Source: Commensalibacter papalotli (ex Botero et al. 2024) (lineage in GTDB: Bacteria; Pseudomonadota; Alphaproteobacteria; Acetobacterales; Acetobacteraceae). From it: DNA of 24,000 nt. The stretch spans positions 28,575-52,574 of the forward strand of contig NZ_CAMXCI010000006.1 of NCBI RefSeq assembly GCF_947179115.1. Direction: 5' to 3'. The notes beneath the pieces are model-generated. The model had not been told where the DNA came from and made no database searches. It was given only the letters and a program-made list of their open reading frames with translations. Made by a program: the position numbers and the translations under genes. Numbering within the stretch: the stretch's first letter is position 1; the number at the start of each line of letters is the position of its first letter. Positions 319 to 19,366 of the stretch are shown here, piece after piece.

Positions 319-815
319 CATTGCTGTATTAATTTTTGCATCTCTTGTTGATCCAGTAACCTTTGATTAGCGCTGCCTCGAAAAGACAGTTCTAAATTTT
401 TTTGAGATAATAAAAAAGGGCCATCAATTAGGAGATCTGTCATGGTTAGCAAATCTATAATTGCATGGTTCTGTTTGCTCATTTTTAATAAATTTTCAAA
501 AACATAACCTGTATAGATAGTAATATGTTTTTTTATCGAATGAATTTTTTTAGCTAATTGCACCAAAGGGGCAGCCTGCATGAAAGGCTCGCCACCAGAA
601 AATGTAATGCCATCCAATAATGGATTTTCCTGAAATTGTTCAAAAATGGTTTCAATATCCATACAAAATCCACCTGTGAAAGGGTGTGTTTTGGGGTTGT
701 GGCACCCTGGACATTGATGGGGACAGCCTTGCGTAAAGATGACAAAACGCAAACCTGGCCCATCAACGATTGATTCCTCGACAACGCCACTAAGGCGTAG
801 TTGATGAGCAGTCAT
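315..815 (-). CDS. nrdG: anaerobic ribonucleoside-triphosphate reductase activating protein (radical SAM)
   Basis: CxxxCxxC radical-SAM motif (GCPHQCPGCHNP), plus IVDGPGLRFVIFTQGC and FSGGEP motifs of class III RNR activases. Lies immediately downstream of nrdD. The ORF track starts at 851, but the ATG at 815 (MTAHQLRLSG...) gives the usual short N-terminus. Start is uncertain (815 or 851). Confidence 0.9.
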   Translation of the reverse strand: MTAHQLRLSGVVEESIVDGPGLRFVIFTQGCPHQCPGCHNPKTHPFTGGFCMDIETIFEQFQENPLLDGITFSGGEPFMQAAPLVQLAKKIHSIKKHITIYTGYVFENLLKMSKQNHAIIDLLTMTDLLIDGPFLLSQKNLELSFRGSANQRLLDQQEMQKLIQQC

Positions 816-1020
816 GTTTAACACGGTCTTTTTCTTCTGCTTGTTTAGCATTATTAAAACGATCTACGGTTCCCACGAGGTATCCAGTAATACGGCGTGT
901 TCTTGCAAAACCGATATTTTCACCAACCATTGTTTGATGAGGGGGATTTGCGGATGTATTCGTTTGATTTTCAAGTTTAATCGTCATAATTTTCTCATTT
1001 ATGGTGATAGGTTGGAACAT
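790..1020 (-). CDS. nrdD: NrdD C-terminal glycyl-radical segment, in a different frame from the NrdD body (frameshifted 3' end, or a separately translated small ORF with alternative ATG at 987)
   Basis: Translation contains FARTRRITGYLVGTVDRFNNAKQAEEKDRVKH, the class III RNR glycyl-radical motif (RxxGY ... RVKH). This frame is closed upstream by TAA at 1060-1062. The body ORF stops at 995-997. Confidence 0.7.
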   Translation of the reverse strand: MFQPITINEKIMTIKLENQTNTSANPPHQTMVGENIGFARTRRITGYLVGTVDRFNNAKQAEEKDRVKHDCSSTTP

Positions 1021-3256
1021 TTGGGTATTGCTGGTGCAAAAGACTAAGCTTTTCGACGCTTATAGCTTCACCTTCTTTACGTCCGCATCGGGGGCAGACA
1101 TTATCAATAACACCGACATATCCACAAACAGGGTCTCTGTCTAAGGGATGATTAATGGCACCATAACCAATGCCTTTGGATTGCATATGACGTATGATCG
1201 TTTCAAAAGCATCAAGATTTTTACAAACGTCACCATCAAGTTCAATATAAGTAATATGACCACCATTTGTTAACGCATGATAAGGCGCTTCTATATCAAT
1301 TTTCTTATGTGTTTTTATTGGAAAGTAAACGGGAACATGGAATGAGTTTGTGTAATATTCTCTATCTGTAATTCCTAGTATACTTCCGTATTTTTCACGA
1401 TCCATCATAACAAAGCGTCCACTTAATCCCTCAGCTGGGGTTGCGATCAGGGAAAAATTAAGCTTTGTCTTTTTGGCTTGTTCATCCATGCGTTCTCTCA
1501 TATGAGAAATAATTTTCAGCCCAAGTTCTTGTGCTTCTTTACTCTCTCCATGATGAACCCCGATAAGGGCTTTTAGTGTTTCTGCAAGTCCAATAAAACC
1601 TGCGGTTAAAGTTCCGTGTTTTAATACTTCTTCAACTGTATCTTCCGAATTAAGCAAATGGGAATCAATCCAAATTCCTTGACCCATCAAAAAGGGATAA
1701 TTTTTAACTTTTTTTTGACTTTGAATTTTTAACCGATGTAATAATTGTTCGATAACCAGATCGATTTTTTCATCTAAAAGTGTAAAAAACAGATCAATAT
1801 TGTGATCAGCGTCTAACCCTAATCGTGGAAGATTAATGGAGGTAAAACTTAAATTACCACGCCCACATATTTCAGTTCGATTTTCATCATGTGCATTGCC
1901 CAGAACGCGAGTACGACATCCCATATATGCGACTTCTGATTGATAAGAGTTAGGTTGGTAATATTGATAATTAAAAGGGGCGTCTATAAAGCTGAAATTT
2001 GGGAAAAGTCGTTTAGCAGAAGTTGCCATAGCTTGTTTAAATAAATCGTAATTTGGATCAATTTTTTCAAAATTAACGCCAGATTTTACTTTGAAAATTT
2101 GTACAGGGAAAATAGGGGTCTCCCCATTTCCTAATCCTGCCTCTGTTGCTTTAAGAAGGTTATGAATTGCCATGCGCCCCTCTTCAGAAATATCAGTTCC
2201 ATAATTGATAGAACTGAAAGGGACTTGGGCACCTGCTCTGGAATTCATAGTATTCAAGTTATGAATAAAAGCTTCCATCGCTTGATATGTACGACGGTCA
2301 GTATTGGCTAGGGCTTTTTTACAGGCATAATGATGTGCTGAAATAAGTGCTTCTGTTGAAACGGAAAGGTTGTTAACTTGTTTTAGTTTTGCTTCAAATT
2401 TAGAAATTAAATTAATATGAATATCTTCTTGAAAATGAGATTTCAGGGTCTCTAGTAAAAGATTAATATCCTGCTCAGTCATATCGGTTTTAATTTGAAG
2501 ATACATGGCGAATATTTTCCAATATTCTTGTTTAAAGGTTTTTTTTACCCCTAATGCCATTGCATAATCAAAATTAGGAACACTTTGCCCCCCATGCATT
2601 TCGTTTTGATTGGCTTGTATAGCAATACATGCAAGCGCTGAGTAGCTTTCTATAGAATTTGGCTCTCTTAAATATCCATGCCCTGTTGAAAAACCATTTT
2701 CAAAAAGGGTAATAAGATCAATTTGACAGCAAGTAGCCGTCAACATATAGAAATCTTTGTCATGAATATGAATATCACCATTTTGGTGAGCTTTAGAAAT
2801 ATTAGGTGGCAGAATATAATTATCTATAAAAAATTTTGATCCTTCTGAACCATATTTTAACATCGTTCCCATTGCTGTATCGCCATCTATATTGGCATTT
2901 TCTCTTTTAATATCAGCATCTTTGGCAGAGCTATAGGTTAGTTTTTTATATATATCCATCAAATAGGTTTCACTATTACGGATTTTAGTATGCTCGGCAC
3001 GATATAAAATATATGATTTAGCCGTATCAGCATAATCGTAATGGATTAAAGTTCGTTCAACTATATCTTGGATTCCTTCAACATGATTAACATAATCTTG
3101 GTTGATGTTTTGGCAAACTTTTTCAGTTAAAAATAAATGATCTGTAGGTGTCATGTTTTCATCAAGTGTTGCATTATTGGCTTTGATGATTGCATTCAGA
3201 ATTTTAACTTGGTCGAAAGGTGCTAGAGACCCGTCTCTTTTGATAATGTGTGTCAT
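995..3256 (-). CDS. nrdD: anaerobic ribonucleoside-triphosphate reductase (class III), catalytic body lacking the glycyl-radical tail in this frame
   Basis: N-terminal ATP-cone (MTHIIKRDGSLAPFDQVKILNAI). Also ENANIDGDTAMGTMLKYGSE, GDIHIHDKDFY, TCCQIDL and the C-terminal Zn-site-like VCGYVGVIDNVCPRCG. Start placed at ATG 3256 (AAGG 7 nt upstream). The 21 extra codons up to 3319 in the ORF track overlap palindromic, regulatory-looking DNA. Confidence 0.93.
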   Translation of the reverse strand: MTHIIKRDGSLAPFDQVKILNAIIKANNATLDENMTPTDHLFLTEKVCQNINQDYVNHVEGIQDIVERTLIHYDYADTAKSYILYRAEHTKIRNSETYLMDIYKKLTYSSAKDADIKRENANIDGDTAMGTMLKYGSEGSKFFIDNYILPPNISKAHQNGDIHIHDKDFYMLTATCCQIDLITLFENGFSTGHGYLREPNSIESYSALACIAIQANQNEMHGGQSVPNFDYAMALGVKKTFKQEYWKIFAMYLQIKTDMTEQDINLLLETLKSHFQEDIHINLISKFEAKLKQVNNLSVSTEALISAHHYACKKALANTDRRTYQAMEAFIHNLNTMNSRAGAQVPFSSINYGTDISEEGRMAIHNLLKATEAGLGNGETPIFPVQIFKVKSGVNFEKIDPNYDLFKQAMATSAKRLFPNFSFIDAPFNYQYYQPNSYQSEVAYMGCRTRVLGNAHDENRTEICGRGNLSFTSINLPRLGLDADHNIDLFFTLLDEKIDLVIEQLLHRLKIQSQKKVKNYPFLMGQGIWIDSHLLNSEDTVEEVLKHGTLTAGFIGLAETLKALIGVHHGESKEAQELGLKIISHMRERMDEQAKKTKLNFSLIATPAEGLSGRFVMMDREKYGSILGITDREYYTNSFHVPVYFPIKTHKKIDIEAPYHALTNGGHITYIELDGDVCKNLDAFETIIRHMQSKGIGYGAINHPLDRDPVCGYVGVIDNVCPRCGRKEGEAISVEKLSLLHQQYPNVPTYHHK

Positions 3257-3320
3257 AACATACCTTGAAAACGTAATGTTTAAAGAATCAAGATGTAATT
3301 TAAGAATGATTCTTAACATT

Positions 3321-3819: not shown

Positions 3820-6280
3820 TTAAACAGCAATAGACTGAATTTGTTTTTGTTTAAGAGGATATGCTCTATCAGAACAAACTTGAATAATTAATTTTCGTTC
3901 TTTATGATTATTGTCAGGCAGATTCAATAATGCTTTTCCTTTTGTCCAACGACAAGGTTGTTGTTCCAAAGTATGCCACCCTGGTAAATCATCTTGCGTT
4001 AGATGATTGGTCATATTAATTACTTGTATATTATAGGCTGCACTTACGATTTGGATACTTCCAACTGAGATACCTAACTCATGACGGTTATCTTCAAAAG
4101 GTCCATCAATATCATTTAAGCGGCTTGTTCTGGATACAAGATAAACGCTTTTAATATTTTCATCAGGTAAAGGGAATATATATCGACCTTGAAAATGTGA
4201 TATAGGTTCAATAGTTAAACCATCTTGTGTAATCAAATGAAAATCAGGATCATGGGTAAGTTGATTTTTATCTTGCATCATTGGTAAACCCATCTTTATA
4301 GCACGTTGCAATAACGTATGATAAAGAGGTTCAACGTAACTGCGATCAACCATTAAGGGGGCACCAGCATCTTTCCCCCAAGTTTTGGGTTTTTTTGGGC
4401 GTATTAAAATAGCACAATCACCATGTTGACTAAATTGGGTTTGATTTCCTGTATCCAGATAACTCTCTGTTAACACTCCATTTGCCCAAATAACTGAATG
4501 CTCCTCTGTTTCAAAATGATAATAAGTGTAGTTTGTAATCGAATAATCATAAAAAATACTATACCCATTCACAAACATACGAGCAGGGGTGAATTTTCCA
4601 TTAAAAAACAAACAATGCTCAGGGGTAATTAATAGATCTTTGCAAGGAGTACCTTCAGCAATAGCATCTTTTAAAATGCGTACAGGATACCCTGCTTCAT
4701 CATCATGTAATGTTGGATTAACTTTTACGGTTTTATTTCCGACCCAACGAACAGATTGAACATCTTCTTTATTTTGTTGCCAGTTAAAACTAAGGATTTT
4801 ATCACCAATACGAATATCCTCTACCGCGATTTCTCCTTCAAGCGTTTTAATCATAGAACCCGCAAGAAAACAAACCTCATAAATTAAATTACCAGTTGAA
4901 TCAGATGCAAGATGATATCCTTCATTTTTGGCGCCAGGAATATTTAAGGAAATTTTATTACCATTATTAAGAATTAAGGTTACAAAATCACCATTGATAT
5001 TTCCATTAACATCTTCAAAGGCTACGTTAGTAACATTAGAGGTTTGAATGCCTGCTAATTTAATTTGATCTGACCAACTCGTGCTTGCACCATCAAAATT
5101 GTTGATTAAGGTTGTTACGATACCACCATTTTCAAGACCCGAAATAGTTAAGCCATGATTACCATTTCCAGGAAAATTGATTGTTCCACCAGCATCTGGA
5201 TAAATTGTGGCGTAACCCCCATGAAGAGTTATTTCACCATTTATTTTTCCACCAGAAGAAACCGTCAGTAACCCTCCGAGATCTACACTAGTAATAGAGC
5301 CACCTGAGGAAACTGTTACATCTCCATTAGCATAAACATATGTATTAATGGCACTTCCGCCAGAAGAAACAATAAGCGATCCAACACTTGTATTAGAAAT
5401 AATGGCTCCTGAGGCAACTATAAGCGTCCCTTGAGCAAAAACCTGCGTATCAGACATAGTTGCTCCCGAAGCAACTATAATTTTAGCGCTAGTATAAACA
5501 CTCGTATGAATAAAATTCATATTAGAAGGGATTGTAAACTCCCCTCCGATACTTGCGTTATAAAACGTCACCCCTGAGGGGCCTATAAGATCGGCAGAGT
5601 TAATATATGCATTAGAAATAGTGACCCCAGAGGAAACAGTTAGTTGTCCACCAGAGTAAATAAATATACCAGAAACATTCACCCCTAAAGCAACTGTTAA
5701 CTGCCCTCCAGAGTTAATAGTTGTATCAATAATACTTGCTCCTGAAGCAACTGGGATCTGCCCTCCAGAAGAAACATATATACCAGAAATATTTATCCCT
5801 GAAGAGACCGCATATTGTACGCCAGATAAAATAAATATATTCGCGACATTTGCTCCTGGGGAAGCTGTAAATAGTCCTCCATCAGAAATCGTTATTTCAG
5901 TAATACTTGCTCCAGAGGAAGCGGTAAACTCTGCTCCAGAGAGAATAATTGTACGAGAAACACTTGCTCCAGAGATAACAGAAAATAGACCTCCAGAATA
6001 AATAGATGTATCAGAAACACTTCCATTAGAAGTAACTATTAAATTCCCACCAGATAAAATATTGGTATTAGAAGCATTCCCGTTTGAAACAACTGTTAAT
6101 TGCCCCCCCAGCATAAATGGATGTATCAGAAACTCTTCCATATGAAGATACCGTTAATTGTCCTCCAGAATAAATGGATGTATTATAAGCACTTCCAAAT
6201 GTAGAAATTATAAGCTGTTCTCCATAGGAAATGGATATATTAGAAACAATTTCACCTGAGGAGACTACTGTGTTTGACAT
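3820..6280 (-). CDS. AIDA-type beta-helix repeat / Hint-domain protein, interrupted by a +1 frameshift in a G7 tract (two ORFs, 6280-6068 and 6141-3820; about 819 aa if the tract were G6)
   Basis: The 70-aa ORF (6068-6280) and the 773-aa ORF (3820-6141) carry the same 19-aa repeat. Removing one G from 6103-6109 reads ...IYAGGQLTVVSNGNASNTNI..., joining them exactly. Hint_2-like block: CFLAGSMIKTLEGEIAVEDIRIGDKIL...PVRI...LLITPEHCLF...YYHFETEEHSVIWANGVLTESY. Confidence 0.85.
4432..4872 (-). other. Hint (Hedgehog/intein-like, Hint_2 / bacterial intein-like) module within the repeat protein
   Basis: Starts with the nucleophile Cys (TGT at 4872-4870) in YEV|CFLAGSMIKT. No intein-type C-terminal His-Asn + Cys/Ser/Thr junction and no homing-endonuclease insert were seen. 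Confidence 0.75.
5212..6280 (-). repeat. about 20 tandem, degenerate 57-nt (19-codon) coding repeats
   Basis: The protein reads as consecutive 19-residue units, e.g. GGQLTVSSYGRVSDTSIYA / GGQLTVVSNGNASNTNILS / GGNLIVTSNGSVSDTSIYS / GGQLTVSSGVTISNAYINS. This is the SGGxxxVxSGxxxxxTxI rung pattern of AIDA-I/Ag43-type passenger beta-helices. Confidence 0.85.
6103..6109 (-). repeat. homopolymeric tract, G7 on the coding strand (C7 on +), at the frameshift site
   Basis: The + strand reads t-g-ccccccc-a at 6101-6110. The frame change between the two repeat-bearing ORFs maps exactly here. Confidence 0.9.
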
Positions 6281-6930
6281 ATTGATTGCCTTGTAAGCAG
6301 AAAAATTAAGAATTTAATACGAAGATTCTATCTATATATTTCTTAGTTTAAACCTAACCTGCTTTTGTTAAGTTTCGATATCAAATTTTCTATAATTATA
6401 AATATATTTATTGATAGTTCAGAGGTTATAGTCGCTTCATTAGTAACTTAATGGTTTATTTAAAGCTTACCGATAATAATTGGTAAGTATTAGATAAAAA
6501 ATATACATTCTTATTGTTTCGCTCATTGGTTGATAGCCAAAATGTGAGCGTTACTGCTAGAAGGACAATAATTAGAATATTTTAACCATCGCATCTTAAA
6601 GTTATCATTAAACATTATACAATGATATTGGGTAGCGAAACAGGATTAAGCGCGTCAGTTGTCACTAAATATAAACTAAACATTCGATCAAACAGAGTTC
6701 AATAATAAGTATTTAATTAAAAGAGCTATCTCTGAAAACTTTATCCAGATTTATTATTTAGCTAATAACGAAAAATTATAAATATATATCCAACATATAA
6801 TGACTGGACAGATTAATAGAAGATTTCTATGGGGGAGTTGATCAGTTGAACTATACAACATCATGCTTAGAAAAAGCGAAGAGATTTTAAAATATCGAAC
6901 AAGAAATATAACTAGTGCAAAAATGAATAT

Positions 6931-13778: not shown

Positions 13779-15047
13779 TTATGAAGTGGGCTCTATGGTA
13801 GGAACTTGTTTATTAATAACCTTGTTCACATCAACATCACCACCTGTTAAGGTGAAAATAGAGATAACTGAAAAACTAAAGGCGATAATACCCAAAATAA
13901 TATAGGTATCTTGAAATCCTATTGTTTCATATAGGTTTCCAGTTAAATATGACATTAACATAATTGCAATTTGTTTAAAAAAACAAAAGCATACAAGATA
14001 AATAGTTGCTGATAATCTAATTTCAAAAACAGTAGTAATATATTTAAAACACCCGACAATTAAAAATGGAACTTCAAACATATGGAGTGTTTTCAAAATA
14101 ATAACTTCAATAACAGAAGTAGCAAAAGCTGATCCTAAAATCCGCACAGACATAATGAAACCCGCAATTAATAGTCCATTTTTAGGCCCGATACGATTAA
14201 TAATTAAAGGAGTAAAAAACATCACTAGCGCATTTAATAATTCTCCTAGCGTGGTAACATATCCAAAAGCTCTTGTTCCCTGAGCTTCTGATGTAAAAAA
14301 GGATACAAAAAAATTGGCGAATTGTTGATCAAAGACATCATAGGTACAAGAAACACCGATAACAAATAAACTTAGGAACCAAAGTCTAGGATTTTTAAAT
14401 AATTGTAATACCAAATGAATATCAAAAGGTTTTTCTTGAACTTCAGGTGTAATTTTCTCCTCTTGAGTATTTTTATTTTCTGGGTTGGACAAATATAACA
14501 AGATTGCTAAGCAGATTGCAAAAACAGATCCCATCCAAAAAACAAACTCATTATTAATGGTCATCATATAACCAACAACAGAGGCGCATATTGCCCAACC
14601 AACACATCCAAACATTCTGGCTCTGCCAAATTCAAAATGATTATGACGACTGACTTTTTCTATATATGCTTCAATCGTAGGTGCACCACCATTATAAATA
14701 AAGCCCAAGTAAAACCCACCAACCACAGAAGCAATATAAATATTGACTTTTAGCAAAGGTCCAAGAACGAATATAAAAAATGGGCCAAACAAAACCAACA
14801 TCCCAACAATAACCCATAAGAGATGCTTTTTTGTTCCAAATTTATCTGATAACAGTCCAAAAATTGGTTGGAAAACCAATGCAAAAAAAGAAATGCTGGC
14901 AAACATAATTCCCATATTAGATTTGGAGACATGATGAATTTCACCAAGCCAAATTGGGAAAAAAGGGAAATATGCACCTATAATAAAGAAATATAGAAAA
15001 AAGAAAGATCCAAAAATCCAAAAATTTTGATTTTTAAGATAATACAT
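13779..15047 (-). CDS. lacY: lactose permease (MFS oligosaccharide:H+ symporter)
   Basis: Near-collinear with E. coli LacY as I recall it: MYYLKNx[14 protein letters not shown], FQPx[42 protein letters not shown], [18 protein letters not shown]. Confidence 0.96.
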
Positions 15048-15068
15048 GATGGATTTCCCCTTTGCCTT

Positions 15069-18170
<3,102 letters not shown>

Positions 18171-18181
18171 TCATAACTCCT

Positions 18182-18214
18182 AAATATAAATGTTATTCGT
18201 TCACATTTATATTT
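18182..18214. promoter_or_regulatory. lac primary operator (O1-like) between promoter and lacZ Shine-Dalgarno
   Basis: The - strand core AAATGTGAACGAATAACATTT (18188-18208) matches E. coli O1 AATTGTGAGCGGATAACAATT at 17/21. It sits inside a perfect 12-bp inverted repeat: aaatataaatgt (18182-18193) and acatttatattt (18203-18214). Confidence 0.8.
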
Positions 18215-18241
18215 AGAGTAATAAACACCACCACTTGTAAA
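18205..18241 (-). promoter_or_regulatory. putative lacZY promoter
   Basis: A -35-like TTTACA at 18241-18236, the same hexamer as the E. coli lac promoter. A/T-rich -10 candidates follow: TCTAAA at 18 nt spacing, TAAATA at 20 nt. They overlap the outer operator arm. The -10 assignment is ambiguous. Confidence 0.3.
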
Positions 18242-18280
18242 ATCATATAAAAGTGAGGTGTGGATATTTTCTTATTTTAC

Positions 18281-19366
18281 CTAAGATCTTGCTGATAAAT
18301 AATCTGCAATCACATATAATTGCTTAGCAAACTCTTTATCATTTGTTGAATTTAATGAATTGGCAGAAGTGCTTGTCTCTCTTTTAACTAAACTTGTCGG
18401 TAACACAAGAGATGAAATATTACTCTCGGGAGCGTTCATTTTATGTAATAATTTCTCGACAGCTTGTTTACCCAACTCCTTAAAATCTTGAGCAATAGTC
18501 GTTAACGGAGGATAAAAAAATGCGCTATCCTCTGTATCATCATATCCAATCACTGATATTTGTTCTGGGATTTGAATTCTCAGCTCATGTAAGGCACGTA
18601 ATCCCCCCAATGCCATTTGATCATTAGCAAAACAAATCGCGGTTGGGTGTTGATGAGAATAGCATAATGCTTTTGTCAAGGCATATCCCGAAGCAGAGCT
18701 CCAATCGCCTTCTTGAATACTTATTGGGGATATACGATGCTTTTGTAAGGCTTTAATCCACCCATCAAAACGTAACCGAGCAGATACAGAACTTTGAGGC
18801 CCTGTAATTAACGCAATTGACGTATGTCCGAACTCAATCAGATGTGTAATGCCTTGTTGTCCTCCCTCTCTTGAATCTGTCATTACAGAAAGGCAGGATT
18901 CTTTGGGGTCTACATCCATAAATAAAACAGGAATATTTCGACATAAATGCTGAATTTGAATTATTTGTTGCGAATTGCTGGGGATGTTGACAATAATTCC
19001 ATCGACGCGTTGTTCTAATAATTCGTTGATAACATGGTCTATTATATTCAAAGATTGATTTTTGGCCATTGCAATAACAACACTATATTTTAATTCTTCC
19101 GCATGCACCTTAACAGAAGCTGCAATTTGAGAAGGCGCGTGCAATGAAATATCTGTGGTTGCTAAACCAATCGTACTGCTTTTCTTGCCAGCCAATTGTT
19201 GGGCTACACGATTAGGCGTATAATTCAATGATTTCATCGCAGTGAAAACTGCTTCTTTTGTTTTTATAGAAACGCAAACAGAGCCGTTGATCACACGCGA
19301 AACTGTTTGATAAGACACCCCAGCCAATGCAGCAACATCTTTTAATGTTGGCTGTTTATTAAGCAT
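18281..19366 (-). CDS. lacI: lactose operon repressor (LacI/GalR family)
   Basis: HTH TLKDVAALAGVSYQTVSRVING. Also NYTPNRVAQQLAGK, LHAPSQIAASVK, SVSARLRFDGW, ANDQMALGGLRAL, VIGYDDTEDSAFFYPPLTTIAQDF. Collinear with E. coli LacI as I recall it, and directly upstream of the lacO-lacZ-lacY unit. Confidence 0.95.
   Translation of the reverse strand: MLNKQPTLKDVAALAGVSYQTVSRVINGSVCVSIKTKEAVFTAMKSLNYTPNRVAQQLAGKKSSTIGLATTDISLHAPSQIAASVKVHAEELKYSVVIAMAKNQSLNIIDHVINELLEQRVDGIIVNIPSNSQQIIQIQHLCRNIPVLFMDVDPKESCLSVMTDSREGGQQGITHLIEFGHTSIALITGPQSSVSARLRFDGWIKALQKHRISPISIQEGDWSSASGYALTKALCYSHQHPTAICFANDQMALGGLRALHELRIQIPEQISVIGYDDTEDSAFFYPPLTTIAQDFKELGKQAVEKLLHKMNAPESNISSLVLPTSLVKRETSTSANSLNSTNDKEFAKQLYVIADYLSARS

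Follow-up and report, generated by a model that had tools for sequence, protein, structure and literature searches.

The DNA analyzed here is a 24 kb window (24,000 nucleotides, nt) from Commensalibacter papalotli, with coordinates counted from window position 1. Its minus strand carries a gene for a protein of tandem repeats and an intein-like Hint domain (3820-6280), split by a homopolymer of seven guanines. This G7 tract lies at 6103-6109, appears as C7 on the plus strand, and is identified as a +1 frameshift site by the sequence itself, a scan for runs, and comparison with strain MX01. Around it the minus strand reads ...ATT TAT GCT GGG GGG GCA ATT AAC AGT TGT.... The first-pass annotation of this stretch had described a G7 that splits the gene, with the frame from the ATG at 6280 stopping at 6068 after 70 codons, and this is confirmed from the sequence. 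The open reading frame (ORF) in question, ORF1 (6068-6280, minus), is recognized as the authentic 5' end of the gene by the ORF list, its translation and the match of its N-terminus; it comprises 59 native codons (MSNTVVSSG...SIYAGG), 11 out-of-frame codons, and a TAA (6068-6070). The rest of the gene is contained in a long ORF of 773 codons (3820-6141, minus), which lies in the +1 frame relative to ORF1, has Pfam matches to AIDA and Hint_2, and is annotated at NCBI as the Hint domain-containing protein WP_282024316.1 (773 amino acids, aa). The first 11 residues of this product (MEEFLIHPFML) are out of the native frame and its next two Gly codons lie inside the tract; the native frame resumes just 3' of the G7, at 6102.

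Deletion of one G in silico joins both ORFs into a single ORF of 819 codons (3820-6280, minus), which reads ...SIYAGGQLTVVSNGNAS... across the former break, has the junction sequence ...SDTSIYAGGQLTVVSNGNASNTN..., and has an intact counterpart in MX01. The view that tract length is the sole lesion, with G6 or G9 restoring the frame, is therefore borne out by a repair that yields the full-length 819 aa. By arithmetic, the in-frame lengths are G6 (Gly-Gly) and G9 (Gly-Gly-Gly), while G7 and G8 are out of frame and the G8 state would read AGGGN-stop. The tract corresponds to codons 58-59 of 819, in the third unit of the repeat array, so that its early position in a gene with an adhesin-like product (repeats of the AIDA/TibA/Ag43 type) was correctly described. 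As in a contingency locus, this placement allows changes in length to switch translation on and off. The uninterrupted G run is specific to this unit, as had been noted: the remaining 15 Gly-Gly pairs of the gene are all encoded by mixed codons.

The repaired N-terminus, MSNTVVSSG..., is identical to that of the intact MX01 ortholog, and nearly all of about 40 Acetobacteraceae homologs begin, like ORF1, with M-x3-V/I-S/T-S-G. Because this family motif is present in ORF1, the ATG at 6280 is judged on sequence grounds to be the authentic start. The restoration of a full-length protein with a conserved N-terminus by a single deletion is not a chance outcome. Since translation would start at 6280, the database start is wrong, and WP_282024316.1 is a truncated call that represents the 3' part of a frameshifted gene with 11 non-native residues at its beginning. 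The internal ATG taken by the database annotation (6139-6141, minus) has a poor ribosome-binding context and is predicted to be a poor start. It had been suggested as the origin of a truncated product; the corresponding ORF does exist, but a GGAGGA stands 19 nt upstream of this ATG, and the initial 11 residues would not be in the native frame.

Regarding the encoded protein, the clearest part of the array of 57-nt (19-aa) strand-loop-strand repeats spans 5651-6248 (minus), as delimited by TRF and by the TIGR04415 and AIDA matches. The 19-residue repeats match PF16168 (AIDA) and TIGR04415, which places them in the AIDA-I/TibA/Ag43 class. Sequence matches of the repeats also extend to the PDB chains 4q1q, 4kh3, and 7ko9 of the TibA, Ag43, and AIDA-I family. 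The repeats are followed by Hint_2, a bacterial intein-like (BIL) domain (4450-4875, minus; PF13403, E=3e-32), which starts at the invariant Cys of EVCFLAGSMI. AlphaFold models the C-terminal 374 residues with confidence (pLDDT 88.9), and Foldseek matches the first half of the model to the BIL domains 6y75 and 2lwy and to mini-inteins with probability 1.00. In an alignment of 50 sequences, C25 (EVCFLAGSMI) and H110 (TPEH) are invariant, as are H149 and E160. A confidently modeled, beta-rich domain of about 210 aa completes the protein (3823-4449, minus). Its conservation extends across Acetobacteraceae, R214, G291, G322, and W333 being invariant, and no match to it was obtained in Pfam, in NCBIfam, or by Foldseek in the PDB. 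Scans with Pfam and NCBIfam did not find an autotransporter beta-barrel translocator (PF03797), the window protein (69.7) and the MX01 ortholog (134.4) scoring far short of the equivalog cut-off of 1200, and inspection of the sequence revealed no Sec signal peptide. This combination of SAAT-type repeats, intein-like domain, and C-terminal domain is widespread in Acetobacteraceae and is arguably more interesting than the tract itself. As a separate observation, the MX01 paralog P0041 (L008 5889-6447) is adjoined by two short ORFs, one of which (112 aa) matches the ShlB/TpsB transporter family and, by this match, looks like the remnant of a two-partner secretion gene.

The ortholog in MX01 (P0001), the one other lineage in the comparison, is intact, encodes 1028 aa, and occupies the same context, in the order pyruvate:ferredoxin oxidoreductase-DHOdh-gene-NrdD, with flanking DNA about 99% identical. 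An ORF interrupted into 70 + 773 aa against an intact 1028-aa ortholog is the configuration of a frameshift pseudogene. At the equivalent site MX01 reads GGCGGAAAA and the tract is absent: both MX01 copies of the tract-bearing unit have GCT GGC GGA AAA TTA (AGGKL), versus GCT GGG GGG G CAA TTA in the window. The flanks of the tract are identical to MX01 over 54 nt upstream and 68 nt downstream, and between them GGCGGAAAA has become GGGGGGGCAA (6101-6110 versus L006 6343-6351), a difference of three substitutions and one inserted base. Of these substitutions, GGC to GGG and GGA to GGG leave the amino acid unaltered and extend the run of G. Such a clustered change is more suggestive of one multi-nucleotide event than of separate mutations. 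Because the MX01 copies read GGC GGA AAA between identical flanks, the tract is a lineage-specific novelty. Conservation of the tract at the same site in orthologs, as in a contingency locus, is thus not observed, and no G/C run of at least seven was seen among homologous genes in the other loci fetched.

A further difference between the two strains concerns the repeat array, which lacks 11 units (209 aa, 627 nt) relative to MX01 (5774-6280 versus L006 6001-7140). Unit-by-unit alignment resolves this shortening into several separate in-frame deletions of 57-nt units, with the intervening sequence almost identical, and the gain or loss of whole units appears to be the main source of variation in this gene. 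A gene-conversion donor for the tract was considered and rejected. The sole other GGGGGGCAA in the fetched loci lies inside nrdD, 3.5 kb away (2585-2600, minus, the same strand), where it reads ATGCATGGGGGGCAAAG and shares 13 of 15 positions with the tract context ATGCTGGGGGGGCAATT, a resemblance that is probably coincidental. The C. intestini homologs were likewise set aside as a polarizing outgroup, as they are non-syntenic, only 55-62% identical, and built of repeat units that cannot be matched.

It is pertinent to consider whether a run of this length is exceptional. The tract is the sole G/C run of at least seven in the window, where a first-order Markov model of the window predicts about 0.6. 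GGG accounts for 17% of the Gly codons in the window's ORFs, GGG-GGG encodes 3 of their 41 Gly-Gly pairs, and in-frame G6 runs are present in paralogs of C. intestini and MX01. None of the fetched Commensalibacter loci contains a G/C run of eight or more. Seven is the most permissive published cut-off for phase variation (PhasomeIt, >=7). According to its authors, tracts this short may have mutation rates of <1e-5 and may serve poorly for switching, and the documented differences between longitudinal isolates concern the NCTC 11168 tracts with at least eight repeats (PMC6321876). The G6 of the ON state lies below every published cut-off and is even less mutable than G7. Tract length alone is therefore unremarkable. 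Since GGG-GGG is an ordinary codon pair here, in-frame G6 runs occur in paralogs, and the number of runs is near expectation, the G7 is most simply explained as the product of an ordinary +1 slip in a GGG-GGG pair, not as a pre-existing hypermutable tract.

The distribution of the allele was followed through assemblies and protein collections. The window is 100% identical to the C. papalotli assembly GCA_947179125.1 (contig CAMXCH010000003), in which ORF1 is called as a separate 70-aa gene. The G7 is present in the NCBI assembly and also in the independent Logan assembly of run ERR10233549, made from the same reads. The exact 773-aa product occurs in the European Nucleotide Archive as CAI3951730 and CAI3955669 and is found on four contigs, from two NCBI and two Logan assemblies; the exact 70-aa product, which requires G7, is found on both NCBI contigs. 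The G7 of the second assembly is deduced from these exact matches to the 70-aa and 773-aa products rather than from DNA. Project PRJEB54578 holds exactly two C. papalotli isolates, both Belgian: LMG 32512T, from Vespa velutina (2019; NovaSeq, Oxford), and R-83534, from Pieris rapae (2022; NextSeq 2000, Pittsburgh) (PMC10149009). The two assemblies are thus inferred to be the two Belgian isolates, both with G7, for which reason a sequencing error is very unlikely.

Evidence of other alleles was not obtained. An exact look-up in a collection of about 15 billion proteins did not contain the repaired 819-aa ON form, and metagenome scans with the tract flanks separated by a gap of variable length, and with the first 30 nt of the gene, gave no hits and no extra alleles. 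A protein search with the repaired N-terminal 135 aa scored nothing, probably owing to repeat composition, and is uninformative. Among isolates no variation in tract length is seen, both assemblies having G7, in a very small sample in which the species is represented by three genomes. The agreement between the two isolates is weak evidence against switching, as their sequences are near-identical at the locus.

Selection on the gene provides information on the age of the lesion. A gap-free alignment to MX01 over 1953 nt contains 7 non-synonymous and 8 synonymous differences, giving a ratio of non-synonymous to synonymous rates (dN/dS) of 0.26, similar to that of the neighboring nrdD (0.18) and DHOdh-like gene (0.28). 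No second disabling lesion is present in the 773 codons of this AT-rich sequence. The true pseudogene and the homopolymer sequencing error named by the first-pass annotation were the right alternatives to weigh, and the old, decaying form of the former is contradicted by these results. The relaxed selection and further lesions of a pseudogene are not observed, a result compatible only with very recent inactivation. Given an otherwise intact gene with the signature of purifying selection, the lesion is judged to be young; the gene is not an old pseudogene, and the frameshift is recent unless the gene still sees occasional use.

Upstream of the authentic start, promoter-like hexamers (TTTAAA-16-TAGAAT; 6325-6352, minus) lie about 45 nt from the ATG at 6280; they are identified by consensus match only, and promoter-like sites are no more numerous in the region than expected from shuffled sequence. 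An Rfam scan of the window gave no matches. The neighbors at higher coordinates, upstream of the gene, are a DHOdh (dihydroorotate-dehydrogenase)-like gene, a pyruvate:ferredoxin oxidoreductase, and a GltD-like oxidoreductase, followed further upstream by a lacI-lacZ-lacY cluster and cysN/cysD-like genes. The lac cluster (13779-19366, minus) shares its gene order with the lac operon of E. coli except that lacA is absent; the LacY it encodes matches PF01306 with E=1e-176, its G+C content matches that of the host genome, and it is unusual for an acetic acid bacterium. At lower coordinates, downstream, lie nrdD, for a class III ribonucleotide reductase, and an nrdG-like gene. The nrdD gene (790-3319, minus; L006 9651-12117) has a TGA stop at 997-995 just after the zinc-ribbon motif CPRCG, and its glycyl-radical motif FARTRRITGYLVG is found in a separate ORF of 65/76 aa, in another frame, whose overlap with the main ORF is about 26 nt. 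Next after the split nrdD is the nrdG-like activase gene. MX01 is annotated with the same split, which may be a two-piece arrangement that has been conserved or a frameshift that both strains share.

Taken together, the observations lead us to favor, with some reserve, a recent, lineage-specific +1 slip in an ordinary G6 codon pair of Belgian C. papalotli, revertible at ordinary homopolymer rates. In the Belgian-lineage ancestor, a repeat unit would have come to encode Ala-Gly-Gly-Gln as GCT GGG GGG CAA, and replication slippage in this G6 pair would then have added one G to give G7. Translation from the ATG at 6280 now terminates after 70 codons, and the other 760 native codons would be translated, if at all, only via the ATG at 6141 or by rare slippage. 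A -1 slip back to G6 would be possible at the rate of any 7-base homopolymer, with no dedicated contingency locus implied.

Several points weigh against this explanation. Only three genomes are accessible, and shared ancestry would explain the G7 agreement equally well if the tract were a slow switch; moreover, a comparison at the level of assemblies leaves room for possible subpopulations with G6 or G8 within a culture. Purifying selection and the lack of a second lesion are also expected of a phase-variable gene. Finally, the two synonymous substitutions that lengthen the G run relative to MX01 could reflect selection for a tract.

These points bear directly on the slipped-strand phase-variation switch proposed in the first-pass annotation, in which a poly-G contingency locus would stochastically switch translation of a beta-helix protein, surface-borne or secreted, between OFF (G7, G8) and ON (G6, G9) and would aid the adaptation of the symbiont to insect hosts or its evasion of phage or immune pressure. 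The mechanics of that proposal are correct: the tract lies early in the ORF and its length alone sets the frame, the product is akin to adhesins of the AIDA/TibA/Ag43 class, and the remainder of the gene is intact and constrained. Furthermore, G7 satisfies the PhasomeIt cut-off of >=7 (PMC6321876), the tract was built by synonymous G-creating changes relative to MX01, and frame-changing slipped-strand repeats with 5- and 8-nt units are known in the same family, in Acetobacter pasteurianus (PMC2761278). What lacks support is the notion of an evolved switch, as the tract is not conserved, no length polymorphism was seen, and G7 is borderline. The accessible data contain no tract-length polymorphism, the MX01 ortholog lacks the tract, and the ON state falls under every published cut-off. 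In addition, G7 is not over-represented relative to composition, no run of eight or more was seen in any paralog or homolog examined, and a full-text literature search joining "phase variation", "homopolymeric", and "Acetobacteraceae" found no paper. On this balance such a contingency locus is unlikely, while deserving the most serious consideration among the alternatives.

A variant of the same idea takes the clustered G-creating substitutions as the birth of the mechanism, so that a newly evolved poly-G contingency switch would have been caught as it arose in a barrel-less AIDA-repeat/intein-like exoprotein. This is a distinctly doubtful reading; if true, it would provide, as far as the literature search could tell, the first homopolymer phase-variable gene described in Acetobacteraceae.

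It may also be asked whether the allele still functions as it stands, either through a 773-aa product from the ATG at 6141 or through a low level of full-length protein produced by slippage, whether +1 ribosomal, by tRNA-Gly on GGG GGG G, or transcriptional. In that case the database would in effect be correct in annotating an intact protein. The long ORF is indeed intact and annotated as a protein, initiation at 6141 would cost just 2.5 of roughly 20 beta-helix repeats, and the G run would permit re-pairing of the P-site tRNA in the +1 frame. On the other hand, the family motif M-x3-V-S-S-G would be lost from the truncated form, no Shine-Dalgarno sequence is suitably spaced from the ATG at 6141, and ribosomes translating ORF1 read through this ATG. 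As for slippage, the post-slip codon GCA is neither rare nor a stop, and the downstream RNA structure is not significant (z = -1.1), on which ground programmed frameshifting was rejected as the main explanation. A functional allele of this kind is accordingly considered improbable.

The remaining alternative, a homopolymer sequencing or assembly error concealing a true G6 and an intact gene, draws on the reputation of homopolymers as classic sites of indel errors and on the two-colour chemistry of both platforms, in which G is the dark base, yet it can be given almost no credence, as the G7 recurs in the NCBI and Logan assemblies of the same reads and as identical frameshifted products occur in the second assembly, by inference from a second isolate processed on another instrument at another center. 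Illumina consensus errors are, moreover, rare at 7-base runs.

The immediate value of these results lies in annotation, since WP_282024316.1 needs correcting. Beyond this, C. papalotli strains differ in their ability to make a large adhesin-like protein and in its number of repeats (819 aa after repair versus 1028 aa), a difference that may bear on host association, Commensalibacter being an acetic acid bacterium that lives as a symbiont in the gut of butterflies, hornets, and bees. Should the tract prove to switch, repeat-based phase variation would be extended to insect-gut acetic acid bacteria, which the current evidence does not require.

Comparison with known systems is informative at the level of both the protein and the tract. 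The AIDA-I, TibA, and Ag43 autotransporters share matching 19-residue strand-loop-strand beta-helix repeats with the C. papalotli protein, which differs from them in having no barrel, no Sec signal by inspection, and a C-terminus made of Hint_2 and a further domain. Ag43 is itself phase variable; its switching is epigenetic (Dam/OxyR) and not repeat-based. The likeness to BIL/Hint proteins consists of the invariant first Cys and the TPEH His, and of a Hint domain placed between variable repeats and a C-terminal domain. In contrast to those proteins, the C-terminal domain here is conserved rather than polymorphic, and Hint autoprocessing is putative in this family.

Within the same bacterial family, the hyper-mutable tandem repeats of Acetobacter pasteurianus resemble the present case in that slipped-strand changes alter the coding frame. 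Azuma et al. (2009) described AP-TR01, with a 6-nt unit repeated 14 times, and AP-TR04 and AP-TR07, with 5- and 8-nt units; the named examples lie in genes for a DNA helicase and for the epsilon subunit of DNA polymerase III, and the instability was observed directly (PMC2761278). The C. papalotli tract differs in being a mononucleotide run of seven bases, in a gene unrelated to those, and no instability of it was observed. A direct link to the A. pasteurianus genes was rejected, as both the repeat types and the genes differ, and the case provides only a family-level precedent for slippage.

The poly-G/C contingency loci of Campylobacter jejuni and Neisseria meningitidis share with the C. papalotli gene a G run near the 5' end that sets the frame of a surface-associated product. 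Their tracts are conserved across strains, variable in length both between and within isolates, and typically G8-G13 in the ON and OFF states, whereas the C. papalotli tract is missing in the sister lineage, invariant in its two carriers, and just G6 when ON. The closest likeness is to ordinary homopolymer-slippage frameshift alleles, the young pseudogenes of host-associated bacteria: a single +1 change in a short coding homopolymer, a gene that is otherwise intact, an allele common to close relatives, and an intact ortholog in a sister strain. From these the present allele differs in nothing substantial, and it is unusual only in that its G6 precursor differs from MX01 by a clustered three-substitution change.

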